Source of the DNA: Candidatus Hermodarchaeota archaeon
GTDB taxonomy: Archaea; Asgardarchaeota; Lokiarchaeia; Sigyniarchaeales; SOKP01
Assembly: GCA_048885925.1 (NCBI GenBank)
Contig: JBHLLG010000080.1
Coordinates: 1 to 12,614 of the forward strand
Length of the DNA stretch: 12,614 bases
Direction of reading: 5' to 3'
Part shown: positions 1-5,812 of the stretch, piece by piece
How the letters are laid out: each line of letters opens with the position of its first letter
Position numbering within the stretch: the stretch's first letter is position 1
Notes under the pieces: generated by a model
The model's input: the letters and a program-made list of their open reading frames with translations, nothing else
What the model was told of the DNA's origin: nothing
Database searches by the model: none
Program-made: the position numbers and the translations under genes

Positions 1-1443
1 GGTGGAGTTATTGGTTGTTGCATAGCTCGTACACTTTCAAAATATGATTTAAAGATCTGTTTATTAGAAAAAGAAGCAGAAATAGCTTCAGGAACTACTA
101 AAGCCAATTCTGGAGTTATTCATGCAGGGTATGCGGCTCCCAGAGAATATATAAAACGACATTTAGGTATTAGAGGAAATAAATTATATACTAAAGCCGC
201 AGAAGAATTGAATTTTCCTTTCAAACGAATTGGTTCTTTTGTAGTAGCCCTAGAAGATAATCAAATTAAACAATTAGAGGAAGAAAGGAAAAAAGGAATT
301 GAGGATGGGGTTCCTGGTTTGGAAGTACTATTAGATAAAAAAATAATAAAACAGATGGAACCAAATTTAACTGATGAAGTTGTTGGTGTTCTACATGCTC
401 CCTCCGCTGGGCTTGCAAGTCCTTATGAATTAACCTTTGCCTTAGCTGAAAATGCTGCTATTAATGGTGTAAAGTTTTTCAGAAGCCATGAAGTTGTAAA
501 AGTTAAACACCAAGATTATATATTTACTGTAAGAACATATCGTGGTGAATTTCAAGGAAAAAATCTTATTAACGCTGCAGGACTTCATGCTGCTAAAATT
601 TCAAAAATGTTAGGATTAGATTATTTTAGTATAATGCCAAGAAAAGGGGAATATATTCTTTTTGATCGAAATGCCTTTCAATTAAATAAAATCTTATTCC
701 CAATTCCCACAAAAGTCTCAAAAGGTATATTAGTTTGTCCAACATTGCATGGTAATACTTTTGTTGGGCCTAATGCTCAAAATATAACAGATTTTGAAGA
801 CACGGCTACTACTACAGCAGGTTTAAAAGAAATATTAGAAGGTGGAATGACATTGGTTCCAAATCTCCCTGCAAGAAGCTCAATTAGAAATTTTGCCGGA
901 TTAAGAGCTGTTCCTGATACATACGATTTTATTATTGATAATACAGATGTTTATGGCTTTATCAATGTTGCGGGAATTTTATCCCCTGGATTGACAGCAA
1001 CCTTTGCAATCGCTGAAAAAATAGTCGAATTTCTTGAATTATTAGGAGTAGAATTAAAAATAAAAGAAGATTATAACCCATTTCGTCCCAAACCTGAAAG
1101 ATTTAAAGATTTCACAAAAAAGGAGCTTGATCAAAAAATTCAAGAAGATCCTGCTTGGGGCAGGATTATTTGTCGATGTGAAACTATTCCCGAGAAAGAA
1201 ATAATTAATGCGATTCATGTACCAGTAGGAGCTAATACAATTGATGGAGTAAAATTTCGATGTAGACCTGGTATGGGTCGATGTCAAGGTGGATTTTGCC
1301 GTCCACGTGTAATTGAAATTTTAGCAAGGGAATTGAATAAATCATTTGAAGAAATCACAAAGAAGGGAGAAGATACAAATATACTAGTTGGAAAGACAAA
1401 AGATTACATTTTAAAAAGTGAAAAAGGAGGTGCTATTGAATGA
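1..1443 (+). CDS. FAD-dependent oxidoreductase, glycerol-3-phosphate dehydrogenase (GlpA/LhgO-like) with C-terminal BFD-like [2Fe-2S] domain; 5'-truncated by the window edge
   Basis: Frame 1 is open from base 1: GGVIGCCIARTLSKYDLKICLLEKEAEIASGTTKANSGVIHAGY (end of the GxGxxG FAD motif plus the T-x-A-N-S-G-x-I-H-A-G motif), so the true start lies before the window, not at 208. Also INAAGL, RKGEY, FAGLRA, SPGLTA and C-terminal ICRCE...RPGMGRCQGGFC. Confidence 0.9.
   Translation, partial: GGVIGCCIARTLSKYDLKICLLEKEAEIASGTTKANSGVIHAGYAAPREYIKRHLGIRGNKLYTKAAEELNFPFKRIGSFVVALEDNQIKQLEEERKKGIEDGVPGLEVLLDKKIIKQMEPNLTDEVVGVLHAPSAGLASPYELTFALAENAAINGVKFFRSHEVVKVKHQDYIFTVRTYRGEFQGKNLINAAGLHAAKISKMLGLDYFSIMPRKGEYILFDRNAFQLNKILFPIPTKVSKGILVCPTLHGNTFVGPNAQNITDFEDTATTTAGLKEILEGGMTLVPNLPARSSIRNFAGLRAVPDTYDFIIDNTDVYGFINVAGILSPGLTATFAIAEKIVEFLELLGVELKIKEDYNPFRPKPERFKDFTKKELDQKIQEDPAWGRIICRCETIPEKEIINAIHVPVGANTIDGVKFRCRPGMGRCQGGFCRPRVIEILARELNKSFEEITKKGEDTNILVGKTKDYILKSEKGGAIE
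1426..1432 (+). promoter_or_regulatory. Shine-Dalgarno site for the 1440 gene
   Basis: GGAGGTG 7 nt upstream of ATG 1440; the ATGA start/stop overlap indicates translational coupling. Confidence 0.8.
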
Positions 1444-2738
1444 AAAAATATGATGTAGATGTTGCTATAATAGGTGGTGGATCTGCTGGTTTAGCTGCTG
1501 CAATTGTTGTTAAAAAAGCTGAATTAGATGTTTTAATATTGGAAAGGGATAGAGAATTAGGAGGAATTACTCTCCAATGTATTCACAATGGATTCGGACT
1601 TCATGAATTTAAAGAGGAATTGACAGGTCCTGAATATGTCCAACGCTTTATTAATCAAGCCGAAGAATTAAAAATTCCCTATAAGTTGGATACGATGGTA
1701 ATTGAATTTAATCCTGACAAAACAATATATGCTGTAAACAAGAATGAAGGATTACTTGAAATCAAAACAAAAGCAATTATTTTAGCAATGGGATGCCGTG
1801 AAAGAACAAGAGGTGCAATTAATATCCCTGGATTTAGACCTTCTGGAATATTTACTGCTGGACAAGCGCAAAGATTTGTAAATATTGAAGGATATTTGCC
1901 TGGTAGAACTTTTGTCATTTTGGGAAGTGGGGATATCGGTATGATTATGGCACGTCGCTTAACCTGGGAAGGATGTGATGTTAAAGCTGTTGTTGAGATT
2001 CAACCTTATGTAAGCGGATTGCTAAGAAATGAAGTGCAATGCTTAGAAGATTACGGGATTCCATTAATAACAAGTTATACAGTTACTAAAATTCATGGAA
2101 AGGATAGAGTCAAAGGTGTAACAATTTCAAAAGTAGATAGAAATTTTGATAGAGTTATAGGATCTGACAAGTTTATTGAATGTGATACTCTTTTATTATC
2201 AGTTGGATTAATACCTGAGAATGAATTGACGAGGGAAGCGGGAGCAGAAATATCGCTAATGGGGGGTCCTGTTGTTGATAATAATTTAGAAACCACTATT
2301 GATGGTATATTTGCTTGTGGCAATGTTTTACAAGTTCATGATTTAGTTGATTTAGTTTCAGCAGAAGCAAAACGTGCTGGATTAAATGCTGTTGAATATA
2401 TTAGGGAAAGATATGGTAAAAAAACTGATAAAAGAGAACAAATCAAATGTTATGCTGGAGAAAATGTTAATTATATAAAGCCTGATTTAATAAATAAATC
2501 TGATTTAGCCAAGGGTATTATATTTACTTTTCGAGTAAAGCGACCAGAGAGAAGGATTTTAATTCAATTTAAGGATGATAAAAATAAAGTTATTTTTAAA
2601 AGAAAAAGAAGATACGTTATTCCAAGCGAAATGGTAGAATTAAAATTAAATTTAAGTGAACAACAAATTGATCTTGAAACTAAAGCCTTAGAAATAGAAG
2701 TAATCCCACGACCAGAGGTTTTAATAGAAGATGATTAA
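1440..2738 (+). CDS. NAD(P)/FAD-dependent oxidoreductase (pyridine nucleotide-disulfide family), partner subunit of the GlpA-like enzyme
   Basis: IIGGGSAGLAAA Rossmann motif, LGGITLQCIHNGFG, ELTGPEY, LAMGCRER, ILGSGDIGMIMARR, IFACGNVLQVHDLVD; overlaps the upstream gene by ATGA. Confidence 0.9.
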   Translation: MKKYDVDVAIIGGGSAGLAAAIVVKKAELDVLILERDRELGGITLQCIHNGFGLHEFKEELTGPEYVQRFINQAEELKIPYKLDTMVIEFNPDKTIYAVNKNEGLLEIKTKAIILAMGCRERTRGAINIPGFRPSGIFTAGQAQRFVNIEGYLPGRTFVILGSGDIGMIMARRLTWEGCDVKAVVEIQPYVSGLLRNEVQCLEDYGIPLITSYTVTKIHGKDRVKGVTISKVDRNFDRVIGSDKFIECDTLLLSVGLIPENELTREAGAEISLMGGPVVDNNLETTIDGIFACGNVLQVHDLVDLVSAEAKRAGLNAVEYIRERYGKKTDKREQIKCYAGENVNYIKPDLINKSDLAKGIIFTFRVKRPERRILIQFKDDKNKVIFKRKRRYVIPSEMVELKLNLSEQQIDLETKALEIEVIPRPEVLIEDD

Positions 2739-2747
2739 ATATATCAA

Positions 2748-2755
2748 GAGGTGAT
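2748..2755 (+). promoter_or_regulatory. Shine-Dalgarno site for the 2761 gene
   Basis: GAGGTGAT 5 nt upstream of ATG 2761. Confidence 0.75.
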
Positions 2756-2760
2756 AAAAA

Positions 2761-3159
2761 ATGCCAACAGAATCTAATGAAGAAGAGCTTCCTAAAGGAT
2801 TCAAAGATATAAGATGCATTGTCTGTCCCACAGGTTGTTTAGTACATGTTGAAAATATCAATGGAGAGTTAATTATAGAGGGACATTCATGCAAAAGAGG
2901 AGAAGAATATGCAAAAGAGGAATTTATTGCTCCAAAAAGAATACTTACAACAACACTGCAAGTAGAAAATGGTCTTTTGCCACTAGTACCTGTAAGATCA
3001 GATGAGCCAATTCTAAAAGATCGATTACAAGAAGCTCTTAAAGTAATTGCAAAAGCAAAAGCTAAAGCACCTATAAGAATGGGCGATATTCTTATAGAAA
3101 AAGTTTTAGGCCTTAATATTAATATAATTGCAAGCAGAAATTTAATACAAAAAGATTAA
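2761..3159 (+). CDS. DUF1667 family small Cys-rich (Fe-S/metal-binding) protein, third member of the G3PDH-type cluster
   Basis: CIVCPTGC...GHSCKRGEEYA...PKRILTTT...PIRMGD pattern and position after the two oxidoreductases. Confidence 0.85.
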   Translation: MPTESNEEELPKGFKDIRCIVCPTGCLVHVENINGELIIEGHSCKRGEEYAKEEFIAPKRILTTTLQVENGLLPLVPVRSDEPILKDRLQEALKVIAKAKAKAPIRMGDILIEKVLGLNINIIASRNLIQKD

Positions 3160-3279: not shown

Positions 3280-3336
3280 AAATTGTTAAAGAAATGTATT
3301 AAAATTTTAAAAAAAATATTTTAGAGGAAACTCATT

Positions 3337-3711
3337 TTGTCAGAATTCGAACAAAAAGTCTTGAAATTACTAGAGGAAATTAATAATAAACTAGATAAAG
3401 TCCTGAAAACTGGACCTACATCTGTAAGTTCAGCTTCAGTGGTATCTGTTTCATCTACTCCTACTGCCACAACAGTTAAACCTTCTGCTATAGTTGATAA
3501 ACAAGCGCAAGAAGCTCGATTAGAAGAGAAACCTGTTTTAGATGGTCGAAGAGTTTGTCCAGAATGCGGTGGTACAGCATTTACCACACATGAAGATAAA
3601 ACCCAAGTTTTACATCAGATGGGCGGTGTTAAAATATACGCAAAAAAATATGTTTGTAATTAATATTAGAATTCCTAATAATAGCAAAAACAGTGTGGCT
3701 ACGAGTATTAA
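3337..3711 (+). CDS. Small Zn-ribbon protein (N-terminal amphipathic helix, Ser/Thr/Pro linker, C-terminal CxxC...CxxC); interrupted gene, predicted join(3337..3659,3690..3711), 114 aa
   Basis: TTG start after GAGG. The unspliced ORF ends at 3663 as ...RRVCPECG...KIYAKKYVCN*, but the same frame resumes after the insert as KQCGYEY* (3688-3711). The joined domain aligns with the intact C-terminal domain of the gelsolin in this window (GRRKCPECG...DK...MYGRKYLCGQCGCQW). Confidence 0.8.
3660..3689 (+). other. Candidate 30-nt bulge-helix-bulge(-like) intron in a protein-coding gene
   Basis: Sequence TTAATATTAGAATTCCTAATAATAGCAAAA with five in-frame stops. Central 4-bp helix UUGU(3654-57)/GCAA(3684-87), 3-nt bulge AAU(3658-60), inner stem UA-a-UAUUAG/CUAAUA-a-UA with an AAUUC loop, AAA(3688-90) on the other strand, weak outer helix. 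Cuts after 3659 and 3689 give TGT AA|A CAG TGT = CKQC. Confidence 0.7.
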
Positions 3712-3727
3712 AATCTAGTATAAATAA

Positions 3728-3745
3728 TTCTTTTTTTTTCTTTTT
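3728..3745 (+). terminator. Oligo-T archaeal-type terminator for the Zn-ribbon gene
   Basis: TTC-T9-C-T5 beginning about 16 nt after the spliced stop at 3711, between convergent genes. Confidence 0.55.
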
Positions 3746-4757
3746 ATAAATTTTTCAATCTCGGATCTAACGCATCCCTTAATCCATCACCAACTAACAT
3801 GAAACCAAGTACAGCAATTAGGATCATAAAACCAGGCCAGAGCGCTGCCCAGGGAGCATCATATAAATGGAGCCGTGCATCATTTATATCATTTCCCCAT
3901 TCAATTAATCTGATATCACTATAACCCAAGAAGGCAAGACCCGCTAAACTCAAAATGATCCCACCAATATTAAATGTAAGAGAAATAATAATAGGTTGTA
4001 TAGTATTTGGAAGGATATGTCTAAACATTATTCTCCAATTTCCTGATCCCGATGTTCTTGCGGCTTCAATATAAGGTAATTCTCGCGCTTGCAATACAAC
4101 TCCTCGAATTAATCGTGAATAATAGGGCACACCAAGAATTCCAAAAGCTAGCATTATATATTCCATCCTTGGGCCCCAAATTGCGACAAATACAAGAGCA
4201 AGGATCAAACCCGGAAACGCAAGGAAGATATCCATAATTCTCATTATTAATGAATCGACCCATCCTCCGTAATATCCGGAAATAACTCCAAAGATAACAC
4301 CAATAACCACACTAAAAGCAATAGACGGTAAAGCAATTGTCAAAGAAGCTCTTGCCCCATAAATGAGCCGTGCTAAAATGTCGCGTCCAAAATCCGTGGT
4401 ACCGAGGGGGTGTCCTGAGGAGGCAGGCTGCCATGCACCATAAAATACACCATTAGCTTGTTCAAATGTATATTGAGAAAGCCATTCCGGGAACACGGCA
4501 AAAGTTGAGATCGTAAAAACAATTAAAATTCCTAATATGGTTAATGGAGATTTTAATCGTCGTATAAACTTTCTTTTACTTATCGTTTTTTCATATTCAA
4601 ATTCCCGAATAGATAATTCTTCTAGCCTATAACCCGGTATAAAAAGAAATTTCAGATTATGGATAATCCATGAGAAAGTACTAATTATAATACCTTTTTC
4701 TTTTCTTTCTTCTAGTTCTAATTCTATTTTATATTCTTGTTCTTTTGTTTGTTTCAT
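3744..4757 (-). CDS. dppC: Peptide/nickel ABC transporter permease, DppC/OppC family
   Basis: HPLGTTDFGRDILARLIYGARASL, GYYGGWVDSLIMRIMDIFLAFP, EAA loop YIEAARTSGSGNWRIMFRHILPN, C-terminal GDGLRDALDPR. Confidence 0.93.
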   Translation of the reverse strand: MKQTKEQEYKIELELEERKEKGIIISTFSWIIHNLKFLFIPGYRLEELSIREFEYEKTISKRKFIRRLKSPLTILGILIVFTISTFAVFPEWLSQYTFEQANGVFYGAWQPASSGHPLGTTDFGRDILARLIYGARASLTIALPSIAFSVVIGVIFGVISGYYGGWVDSLIMRIMDIFLAFPGLILALVFVAIWGPRMEYIMLAFGILGVPYYSRLIRGVVLQARELPYIEAARTSGSGNWRIMFRHILPNTIQPIIISLTFNIGGIILSLAGLAFLGYSDIRLIEWGNDINDARLHLYDAPWAALWPGFMILIAVLGFMLVGDGLRDALDPRLKNL

Positions 4758-4798
4758 AATTTTTTCACATCTACTATTCTAAATATTTTTATTATCAA

Positions 4799-5812
4799 TT
4801 AATACCTTATTCGGGGATCAATAACTCCATACAGGACATCAATCCCTAAATTTATAATGATAAAAACAAGTGTTGTTATAAATACAATTCCGTTTAATAT
4901 CCAATAATCAACATTTGTAATAGCAATGATTAATAACTCCCCCATTCCATGCAAATTAAAAGTAGATTCCGTAAGAACAGCACCCCCTAATAATCCTCCA
5001 AAGTTTAATCCTATAATCGTCATTGTTGGTATGAGCGCATTTTTTCGCGCATGTGTATTGATTACATCCTTTTCCTTACATCCTTTTGCCCTAGCAGTTC
5101 TTACATAATCCTGTTCCAAGACTTCGAGCATACTCGACCGGGTTTGTCTCGTGATAGATGCCAGTGTTATAATTGTTAAACATAATACTGGTAAAATTAA
5201 ATGCTCGATATAATCTATAAGCATATGGATATTTCCTGATAAGAGACAATCAATTATTCTGAAATTAGTAATACTGGGAGGATCTCCTATACCTGAAGTC
5301 TTGTAGCCAATTGCTGGAAACAGCTTGATTTGCCAAGTGAGAAGGTATTGAAACAACATTCCCATCCAAAATACGGGAATAGAAACTCCAACCAGAGCAA
5401 ATCCCCGTAAGAAGGTATCTTTAGCCTTATTTCGGTGGGTTGCTGAAATTACACCCGTCTTAATCCCTAAGATAGATGCGATGATAACTGAGAATAACGC
5501 GATATCAAAAGTTCTAAAAAACCGTTCTGTAACAATATCCCATACTGGGATACCTCTATATTGACTGGATAGTCCCCAATCACCAGTAAATAACCTCCCT
5601 AAGTAAAGAAAATATTGCTCCACAATTGGTCTATCAAGACCCAATAATCTCAATTGTGCATCATACTGTTCTTGTGTAAAAACCCTACCAAGATGAGCTA
5701 AAACGGGATCTCCTGGCAATAATCTTGAAAGAATAAAGGTTAATGTAATTGCACCAAACAATACAGGTAATAATTGTAGCGTCCTTCTTATGATGTATTT
5801 AATCATACTCAT
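4799..5812 (-). CDS. dppB: Peptide/nickel ABC transporter permease, DppB/OppB family
   Basis: YIIRR, LPGDP, GLDRPIVEQY, GDWGLS, SIPVFW, RSSMLEVLEQDYVRTARAKG, HARKNALIP, C-terminal DPRIRY. Confidence 0.94.
   Translation of the reverse strand: MSMIKYIIRRTLQLLPVLFGAITLTFILSRLLPGDPVLAHLGRVFTQEQYDAQLRLLGLDRPIVEQYFLYLGRLFTGDWGLSSQYRGIPVWDIVTERFFRTFDIALFSVIIASILGIKTGVISATHRNKAKDTFLRGFALVGVSIPVFWMGMLFQYLLTWQIKLFPAIGYKTSGIGDPPSITNFRIIDCLLSGNIHMLIDYIEHLILPVLCLTIITLASITRQTRSSMLEVLEQDYVRTARAKGCKEKDVINTHARKNALIPTMTIIGLNFGGLLGGAVLTESTFNLHGMGELLIIAITNVDYWILNGIVFITTLVFIIINLGIDVLYGVIDPRIRY

Follow-up and report, generated by a model that had tools for sequence, protein, structure and literature searches.

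A probable 30-nt bulge-helix-bulge intron in the pre-mRNA of an Asgard zinc-ribbon protein, and a candidate set of similar mini-introns in its genus

The window analyzed here is an entire 12.6-kb contig (C80) of a metagenome-assembled Asgard genome of 3.9 Mb with 29% G+C and 181 contigs. On its forward strand, a TTG-started open reading frame (ORF) occupies 3337..3663; its translation has the C-terminal end ...GGVKIYAKKYVCN before the stop, the last residues being ...YAKKYVCN. In-frame stops follow at 3661, 3667, 3676, 3679, and 3682, and past the last of these the frame is open again as QKQCGYEY, with a stop at 3709-3711. Deleting 3660-3689 produces TGT-AAA-CAG-TGT and a protein ending in ...YVCKQCGYEY. 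Because AA is repeated at both borders of the insert, the deletions 3658-87, 3659-88, and 3660-89, each offset by one base, give an identical product. The features of the locus, as we read them, are as follows.

3324..3327, + strand: GAGG, read from the sequence; candidate ribosome-binding site, 9 nt ahead of the TTG codon
3337..3659, + strand: exon 1 of a small zinc-ribbon protein gene, from the TTG start to Cys107 and the AA that begins the junction codon
3648..3651, + strand: 5' strand of a weak outer helix (h), with 3693-3696, after mismatches 3652/3692 and 3653/3691
3654..3657, + strand: 5' strand of the 4-bp central helix, exonic, pairing with 3684-3687
3658..3660, + strand: 5' bulge AAU, predicted cut 3659/3660
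3660..3689, + strand: predicted intron of 30 nt; in order, one base of the 5' bulge, a stem strand of 9 positions, a loop of 5 nt, the second stem strand, 4 nt that belong to the central helix, and two bases of the 3' bulge
3661..3683, + strand: inner helix (h'), 3661-3669 with 3675-3683, with an A3663.A3681 mismatch and the loop AAUUC at 3670-3674
3684..3687, + strand: 3' strand of the central helix, intronic, pairing with 3654-3657
3688..3690, + strand: 3' bulge AAA, predicted cut 3689/3690
3690..3711, + strand: exon 2; opens with the third base of the junction Lys codon, then encodes QCGYEY up to the stop at 3709-3711, and brings the fourth zinc-ligand Cys
3731..3745, + strand: T9-C-T5 tract 3' of the exon-2 stop, likely an archaeal termination signal

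Oligo-T runs act as archaeal terminators, which is the basis for our reading of 3731..3745; the sequence between the first stop and exon 2 holds no T-run. The spliced product would complete a CPEC...CKQC zinc ribbon. A Pfam search of this protein found no family at the cut-off and only sub-threshold zinc-ribbon matches, the best being Zn_Ribbon_TF (18.5 bits vs. a cut-off of 29). No second orthologue is listed in the same genome; the next match (E = 9.7e-7) is a 282-aa paralogue on contig C55 with the same four-Cys ribbon at its C-terminus, CPNC...CTKCGFEF followed by the stop.

The candidate bulge-helix-bulge (BHB) has the central pairs U3654-A3687, U3655-A3686, G3656-C3685, and U3657.G3684, that is, three Watson-Crick pairs and one G.U, and its inner helix is paired at eight of nine positions. 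In size, the central helix and the two bulges are canonical. The outer helix, two mismatches and then four pairs of which two are G.U, is weak, so the motif takes a relaxed hBHBh' form; the preliminary description had called the motif relaxed as a whole, which fits the outer helix and does not fit the other two elements. Everything else that it read from the sequence (the stops, the resumed frame, the named pairs, the bulges, and the stems) holds on re-reading. In the part of PMC5829648 that is cited here, the relaxed form is said to be accepted only by a broad-specificity EndA.

In each bulge, EndA cuts between residues 2 and 3 (PMC2738675, in the passages cited). We took this rule from that source for all loci and enumerated every position/length pair near each insert. 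In this locus, the cuts fall after 3659 and 3689 and remove 30 nt; the earlier claim that the rule takes out exactly 30 nt and restores CKQC agrees with 28 intron-less orthologues, which share that C-terminus. An alternative register exists in this locus and in its orthologue in genome G006, with cuts after 3658 and 3690 that remove 32 nt and shift the frame. It has four Watson-Crick central pairs and scores worse, at -1.9 versus -3.7 kcal/mol for the frame-restoring BHB register. The register was chosen by the coding criterion and not by structure alone.

The fold of this one locus is unexceptional. The minimum free energy (MFE) of 3640-3705 (66 nt) is -5.9 kcal/mol, with no exceptional stability against 200 shuffles (z = 0.08); the MFE structure of this segment is not a BHB, and the frame-restoring register, at -3.7 kcal/mol, lies above it. 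Genome-wide, the bare motif (a 4-bp helix plus the inner stem) has 631,850 matches, or about 8x10^-4 per position/length pair, with a denominator of about 8x10^8 pairs by our own arithmetic. Since the motif is common and the fold unexceptional, the single locus proves nothing alone. The weak points of the BHB reading are a fold no better than that of shuffled sequences, the weak outer helix, and the frame-shifting alternative register.

There is another reading, in which the 30 nt are a hairpin insertion that is never removed and the gene either makes a truncated three-Cys protein (...YVCN) or is a decaying pseudogene. The ORF as written does end at the stop 3661-3663, hairpin-plus-helix motifs are frequent by chance in an AT-rich genome, and the fold does not stand out; moreover, since exon 2 is just seven codons long, a truncated protein might be tolerated. 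The comparative evidence is what decides here, and it does exceed chance: the same geometry recurs in independent orthologue inserts, with the frame restored.

The source is a metagenome-assembled genome of 181 contigs, in which assembly or sequencing artefacts might be suspected. Contigs from a second sample, however, cover 3634-3690 with 0 differences, another study has a contig across 3454-3718 in which there are seven substitutions and no gap, and related inserts are found in seven other assemblies, two of which are single-contig genomes. An artefact, which the preliminary description had named as one way in which its reading could fail, is refuted to the extent that contigs of DNA can refute it, and we give it a negligible probability. 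One second-sample contig runs from 3656 on into the type of intron described below for G022.

Orthologues were found in 34 of the 35 other genomes of the genus, and 35 loci, the present one included, were read. The insert is absent in 28 of these, where the protein ends in ...KIYAK[KR]Y[VI]C[KR]xCGxxx and the junction Lys codon stands exactly where the cut rule places it; C74, C77, C107, C110, and G111 are invariant across all 28. The other seven loci carry inserts of 29-32 nt at two sites that lie 12 nt apart. Site 1 (after YVC-AA) is occupied by 30-nt inserts in the present locus, G006, and G022, the G006 insert differing from ours by three substitutions and the G022 insert having another sequence. 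Site 2 (after YA-AA) lies 12 nt further upstream and is occupied in G007 (29 nt), G021 (32 nt), and G005 and G014 (30 nt each). The 30-nt introns at both sites have a common architecture, 1 + 9 bp + 5-nt loop + 9 bp + 4 + 2.

The preliminary description had looked to an alignment of orthologues for intron-less alleles and for inserts of variable length. Both exist, and the inserts of other length (29 and 32 nt) follow the same cut rule. In G022, G007, and G021, just one solution combines four central pairs with a long inner helix (of 9, 5, and 11 pairs, respectively), and this solution restores the orthologue frame, in the last two although 29 and 32 are not multiples of three. Thus, a 4-bp helix with 3-nt bulges and the EndA rule lead to the exact frame in five of the seven inserts (the present one, G006, G022, G007, and G021).

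The remaining two, G005 and G014, are less regular, as is L101, a further metagenome-assembled genome found in a wider scan. In these three, the fully paired register would remove 28 nt and shift the frame; only if the register is moved by a single base, which leaves three of the four central pairs and an A.G mismatch, is the frame regained. Compared with G021 and G007, two bases have been lost from their introns, and the exonic Ala codon has changed from GCU to GCA. That wider scan, of public genome contigs, found inserts in 6 of 68 loci, 61 intact loci, and one without a detectable motif, the inserts being of the types already found in the genus plus the one in L101. Among 46 JGI metagenome loci, there were no inserts.

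On a gene tree built from 300 nt, the intron-bearing rows are scattered and require seven changes, a pattern that is also expected of sporadic insertions and to that extent suits a truncated or decaying gene. G006 is placed as sister to the intron-less G009 with a support of 100/99, yet its intron is nearly identical to ours. This placement implies repeated precise loss, transfer by recombination, or an unreliable tree from a short gene.

The preliminary description had also pointed to covarying stems. Of 51 cells in the introns at site 1, 98% are paired, and among these three introns there are three pairs, all in the inner helix, that are changed on both sides; the central helix is paired in 12 of 12 cells, as is the outer helix, there mostly by G.U and A-U. 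When the partners are slid by 1-3 columns as a control, 31-69% of the cells are paired. Because there are just three sequences and the observed values are matched by 29 of 500 shuffles, these compensatory changes are suggestive of a conserved stem and should be read as a signal from a very small sample.

All seven intron-bearing loci keep the frame of exon 2, the Cys and Gly codons in it, and the position of its stop, and the Cys codons are only TGT or TGC. The three differences between the present locus and G006 are all synonymous, and the variable sites fall on codon positions 1/1/6 for site 1 and 4/4/10 for site 2. Exon 2 evolves as coding sequence in the intron-bearing genomes, and its conservation, even where inserts of 29 and 32 nt put it out of frame, contradicts an insertion that stays unspliced. 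Further points against a truncated protein or a pseudogene are that no second orthologue is listed in this genome and that the insert is not repeated in it. We therefore consider permanent truncation or decay of the gene improbable.

A search of the genome with the insert and its flanks (blastn-short) gave no second copy. A 23-nt match on contig C6 was rejected as a repeat copy, as it lies on the opposite strand in a coding stretch for a membrane segment. A mobile palindromic element was considered and set aside.

We scanned the genome for BHB motifs whose removal merges two long open frames, and kept cases by continuity of the Pfam profile and by their orthologues. The outcome of this genome scan, which the preliminary description had put forward, is mixed: several of the hits with the best structure are clearly split genes, but the counts show no statistical excess over controls with cuts shifted by 1-2 nt. 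Genome-wide, there were 4747 ORF-merging motifs versus 4650-4906 in these controls and, under stricter settings, 34 versus 24-35. Adjacent genes on the same strand swamp the signal, and the scan therefore gives no number of introns. The individual cases and the weaker candidates, given by contig and position, are the following.

C16:1810-1839, - strand: predicted intron in CdhC (ACS beta), 30 nt; the PF19436 profile ends at 154 and resumes at 156, with one junction codon between
C4:38336-38367, + strand: predicted intron in CODH, 32 nt; PF03063 is interrupted between 457 and 458, and the insert shifts the frame
C2:56851-56880, - strand: predicted intron in an EF-G/EF-2-like GTPase, 30 nt; splits the G domain (PF00009 2-35 and 49-187)
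C5:45896-45925, - strand: predicted intron in a nucleoside-phosphorylase-like/glycosyl-transferase-family-3 gene, 30 nt; PF02885 lies on one side and PF00591, from profile position 11 on, on the other
C15:18539-18569: candidate in a JAB/MPN gene, 31 nt, motif only
C31:18957-18988: candidate in a 4Fe-4S protein gene, 32 nt, motif only; a textbook hBHBh' with a 6-bp outer helix
C6:5548-5581: candidate in a second Prismane-family gene, 34 nt, motif only

At the CdhC site, 27 of 29 genus loci are contiguous, with an AAA or AAG codon there. A homologous intron, also of 30 nt, stands in the CdhC gene of G027, and its stem shows compensatory changes relative to that of the present genome. Other species carry 30-nt inserts in CdhC at two more sites (one in G017 and G004, the other in G016), where the BHB cut would yield a product of orthologue length; this brings the CdhC sites to three. 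The CODH site is contiguous in all 22 other genus loci, so the intron is found in only 1 of 23. Its motif is a textbook hBHBh' with an outer helix of 6 bp; this helix lies in the exons, and orthologues that lack the intron have it already. In both the CdhC and the CODH inserts, the cut positions implied by the frame agree with the EndA rule, and inserts of this type, if they stayed in the message, would break these two essential genes as well, a further argument against truncation of the zinc-ribbon protein.

Other hits were discarded. Those at C22:43872, C37:9725, C42:11552, and C24:1524 (strand-specific indices) were rejected as neighboring genes, their supposed second exons starting like a protein N-terminus. 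At C5:49821-49850, the read-through has a single TGA at a Cys position of what we take to be an HdrA-like CxxC motif, probably a selenocysteine codon.

The genome encodes both enzymes that this type of splicing would use. An EndA gene is recognized as a 198-aa ORF on C22 (PF01974, 101.7 bits), and RtcB is encoded on C12 (PF01139, 569.6 bits). PF01974 detects no second EndA-family gene even at E <= 10, and with that model no beta subunit was identified. The relevant part of PMC5829648 describes the Asgard EndA as an (alpha-beta)2 type whose L1 loop is tied to broad specificity. As for tRNA genes, those of this genome look heavily interrupted, with aragorn introns in 19 of 31, though the details of these predictions are unreliable.

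The proposed course of events is as follows. The pre-mRNA would fold so that exonic 3654-3657 pairs with intronic 3684-3687, leaving a 3-nt bulge on each strand; EndA would cut after the second base of each bulge, at 3659/3660 and 3689/3690; RtcB would ligate the exons; and the mature mRNA would encode the full four-Cys protein ...YVCKQCGYEY.

Some other machinery, such as a different structure-specific nuclease or a self-cleaving element, might remove the insert instead. In favor of this are the poor outer helix and the two orthologues that need a central helix with only three of four positions paired. On the other hand, the frame-implied cuts coincide with the EndA rule in five of the seven inserts of this gene and also in CdhC and CODH, and the motifs of CODH and of the C31 candidate are textbook hBHBh' with 6-bp outer helices. 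We regard removal by enzymes other than EndA and RtcB as very improbable.

Alternatively, the ribosomes could skip the 30 nt while translating, so that RNA processing would not be required. An example is phage T4 gene 60, where ribosomes hop over a segment of the mRNA, with a stop codon and a hairpin at the take-off site, and in the present gene a stop codon and a hairpin likewise directly follow the last sense codons. However, no matching take-off and landing codons yield the orthologue sequence (a hop from UGU to UGU drops KQC), and bypassing does not predict that a 4-bp helix and 3-nt bulges mark the exact borders of inserts of 29, 30, 32, and 34 nt in several genes. A ribosomal hop is, in our view, scarcely credible here.

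We conclude that 3660-3689 is, with high probability, an intron of the BHB or tRNA type, carried by the pre-mRNA for a small zinc-ribbon protein; from the comparison of genomes, we infer cleavage and ligation at 3659/3660 and 3689/3690. This agrees with the preliminary description, which proposed an EndA/RtcB-type intron in a Lokiarchaeia-like genome and is now supported by orthologue junctions, inserts at two sites, conservation of exon 2, compensatory changes, the enzyme genes, and other split genes. The intron appears to be one of a set of predicted mini-introns of 29-34 nt in protein-coding genes, present or absent by species at the same site. It is likely, though less firmly so than for the single intron, that this Promethearchaeia (Lokiarchaeia) genus carries a population of BHB mini-introns of about 30 nt, subject to turnover, in the CdhC, CODH, translation-type GTPase, and zinc-ribbon genes, that several proteins need mRNA splicing by the tRNA machinery, and that gain and loss take place where the exon supplies half of the motif.

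If this is true, EndA and RtcB splice several mRNAs of Asgard archaea, among them those of central carbon metabolism (the core Wood-Ljungdahl enzymes CdhC and CODH), and the annotation of such metagenome-assembled genomes will label these genes as truncated, split, or pseudogenes. Their presence or absence by species would also form a natural series for BHB intron gain, with the two sites 12 nt apart, the three CdhC sites, and a CODH intron on a pre-existing exonic outer helix as examples.

Pre-mRNA introns in crenarchaeal cbf5 were reportedly treated by Watanabe (2002) and Yoshinari (2006). These introns have a BHB-like motif, in which each cut is predicted to separate bulge residues 2 and 3 (Yokobori 2009, PMC2738675, in the passages cited). 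The Asgard case resembles them, as far as those passages go, in having a BHB-like motif in a protein-coding transcript with the same predicted cut positions, and in an intron that some species have and others lack at that site; the hetero-oligomeric, broad-specificity EndA of the cbf5 hosts may be listed as a further common feature. It differs in the gene (an uncharacterized zinc-ribbon protein and not the pseudouridine synthase Cbf5), in the phylum (Asgard/Promethearchaeia vs. Thermoproteota), and in the intron sequence, as well as in the involvement of several unrelated genes per genome, two sites within 12 nt, three CdhC sites, and a narrow class of 29-34 nt. Splicing of cbf5 was shown by cDNA, whereas that of the Asgard zinc-ribbon gene is deduced from DNA comparison.

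Asgard tRNA genes are very intron-rich, and the route by which these introns arrived is given as unknown (PMC11291895; bioRxiv 10.64898/2026.10.13.758758, both in the passages cited, which make no mention of protein-coding hosts). With the tRNA BHB introns described there, the mini-introns share the motif, the presumed enzymes, the exonic half of the motif, and sporadic gain and loss; here, unlike in tRNA, the host RNA is an mRNA, and the cut must therefore also preserve the reading frame. In Haloferax volcanii, the HVO_1309 mRNA is cleaved by the splicing endonuclease (PMC7714728, in the section cited). That case is alike in offering an mRNA as EndA substrate, but it is a single additional euryarchaeal one and, in that section, is not described as an ORF-interrupting intron in several genes.

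In eukaryotes, the HAC1/XBP1 mRNA undergoes unconventional splicing by Ire1 and RtcB. The parallel with the present proposal is that a protein endonuclease excises a small structured segment from an mRNA, which is then resealed by a ligase of the RtcB type and encodes a changed C-terminus; the endonuclease and the RNA motif differ, and there is no family relationship. The Asgard introns, if real, would bear on the ancestry of mRNA splicing by protein enzymes (Ire1/RtcB-type) in the lineage leading to eukaryotes.

In the parts of the literature cited, protein-coding BHB introns are documented essentially for cbf5 (Crenarchaeota) and the one Haloferax mRNA, and reviews up to 2025 cite only these; the cbf5 studies are the only ones cited in a structural paper of 2025, and a 2020 paper speaks of the motif in "one mRNA." The main texts searched held no report of BHB introns in Asgard protein-coding genes. 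The BHB intron as a type is thus already known, and what is new are the host genes and the phylum; the more novel claim, made in silico, is that several genes of one genus would carry such introns with turnover among species.

Outside the window, G000 (the genome to which the window belongs) has four more protein-coding genes that are interrupted by bulge-helix-bulge (BHB)-bounded inserts of 30–32 nt, as follows (C numbers are G000 contigs and L numbers individual loci):

C16:1810-1839, minus strand: insert in the CdhC/ACS beta gene (L156); the Pfam profile continues 154/156 across the insert
C4:38336-38367, plus strand: insert in a CODH gene (L160); the Pfam profile continues 457/458 across the insert
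C2:56851-56880, minus strand: insert in an EF-G-like GTPase gene (L157); Pfam profile coordinates continue across
C5:45896-45925, minus strand: insert in a glycosyl-transferase-family-3 or nucleoside-phosphorylase-like gene (L154); Pfam profile coordinates continue across

The CODH intron is flanked by a 6-bp outer helix (GCUCCA with UGGAGC), which is exon sequence and is already there in most of the 22 intron-less orthologues (CODH junction, L192-L214); the exonic hairpin therefore predates the intron, which lies within its loop. Inserts of 30 nt with in-frame stops are also found in the CdhC genes of other species of the genus, namely L186 (genome G017), L188 (G004), L190 (G016), and L170 (G027), and altogether these occupy three distinct sites. 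Cutting after the second base of each 3-nt bulge yields a CdhC of orthologue length in all four, and the four-pair central helix is complete in L186 and L190, with three of the four pairs formed in L188 and L170.

There are three more candidate introns in G000; for each of them Pfam matches only one exon of the two, and joining the exons restores a recognisable motif:

C15:18539-18569, minus strand: candidate intron of 31 nt in a JAB/MPN gene (L158); the join recreates HSHPGF/KVMMSHID
C31:18957-18988, minus strand: candidate intron of 32 nt in a 4Fe-4S protein gene (L159); the join recreates CNGCAFC-x-RACDFG
C6:5548-5581, plus strand: candidate intron of 34 nt in a second Prismane-family gene (L161); the join recreates a Cys-rich CODH N-terminus

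The intron scan also returned a false positive, in an HdrA-like gene (C5:49821-49850, minus strand; L155). Here there is one single in-frame TGA, at the position of the second Cys in the CxxC motif of related proteins, and this codon probably specifies selenocysteine.

In the tree of zinc-ribbon gene orthologues (L001-L035), those with the intron are scattered. The intron-bearing genome G006 groups with the intron-less G009 (support 100/99), yet its intron differs from that of G000 at only 3 of 30 positions, which hints at either precise loss or lateral spread. A 256-nt contig from another sample (run X2) matches window positions 3621-3656 and thereafter carries the G022-type intron, a different 30-nt sequence at the same site, so two variants of this intron occur together in one sediment sample.

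The four-Cys ribbon itself recurs in this group as a domain that has no name. It forms the C-terminus of a 282-aa paralogue in G000 (L153:970-1815, minus strand; contig C55), which also contains a long coiled coil rich in Gln. Most relatives have similar proteins, about 300 aa in length. One insert-free orthologue, on a metagenome contig (L072), reads YVFKKCG, with Phe replacing the third zinc-ligand Cys.

The gene neighbours in the window look ordinary (names from reading the translations):

within 1440-3159, upstream, plus strand: putative FAD-dependent oxidoreductase, 432 aa
within 1440-3159, upstream, plus strand: small Cys-rich protein, 132 aa
within 3744-5812, downstream, minus strand, convergent with the zinc-ribbon gene: two ORFs of 337 aa, both resembling ABC-transporter permeases

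Across the whole of G000, aragorn detects just 31 tRNA genes, of which 19 are called as intron-containing. Several of these introns are oddly placed, and the calls are unreliable one by one. The overall picture fits published reports that tRNA genes are heavily interrupted in some Asgard archaea.
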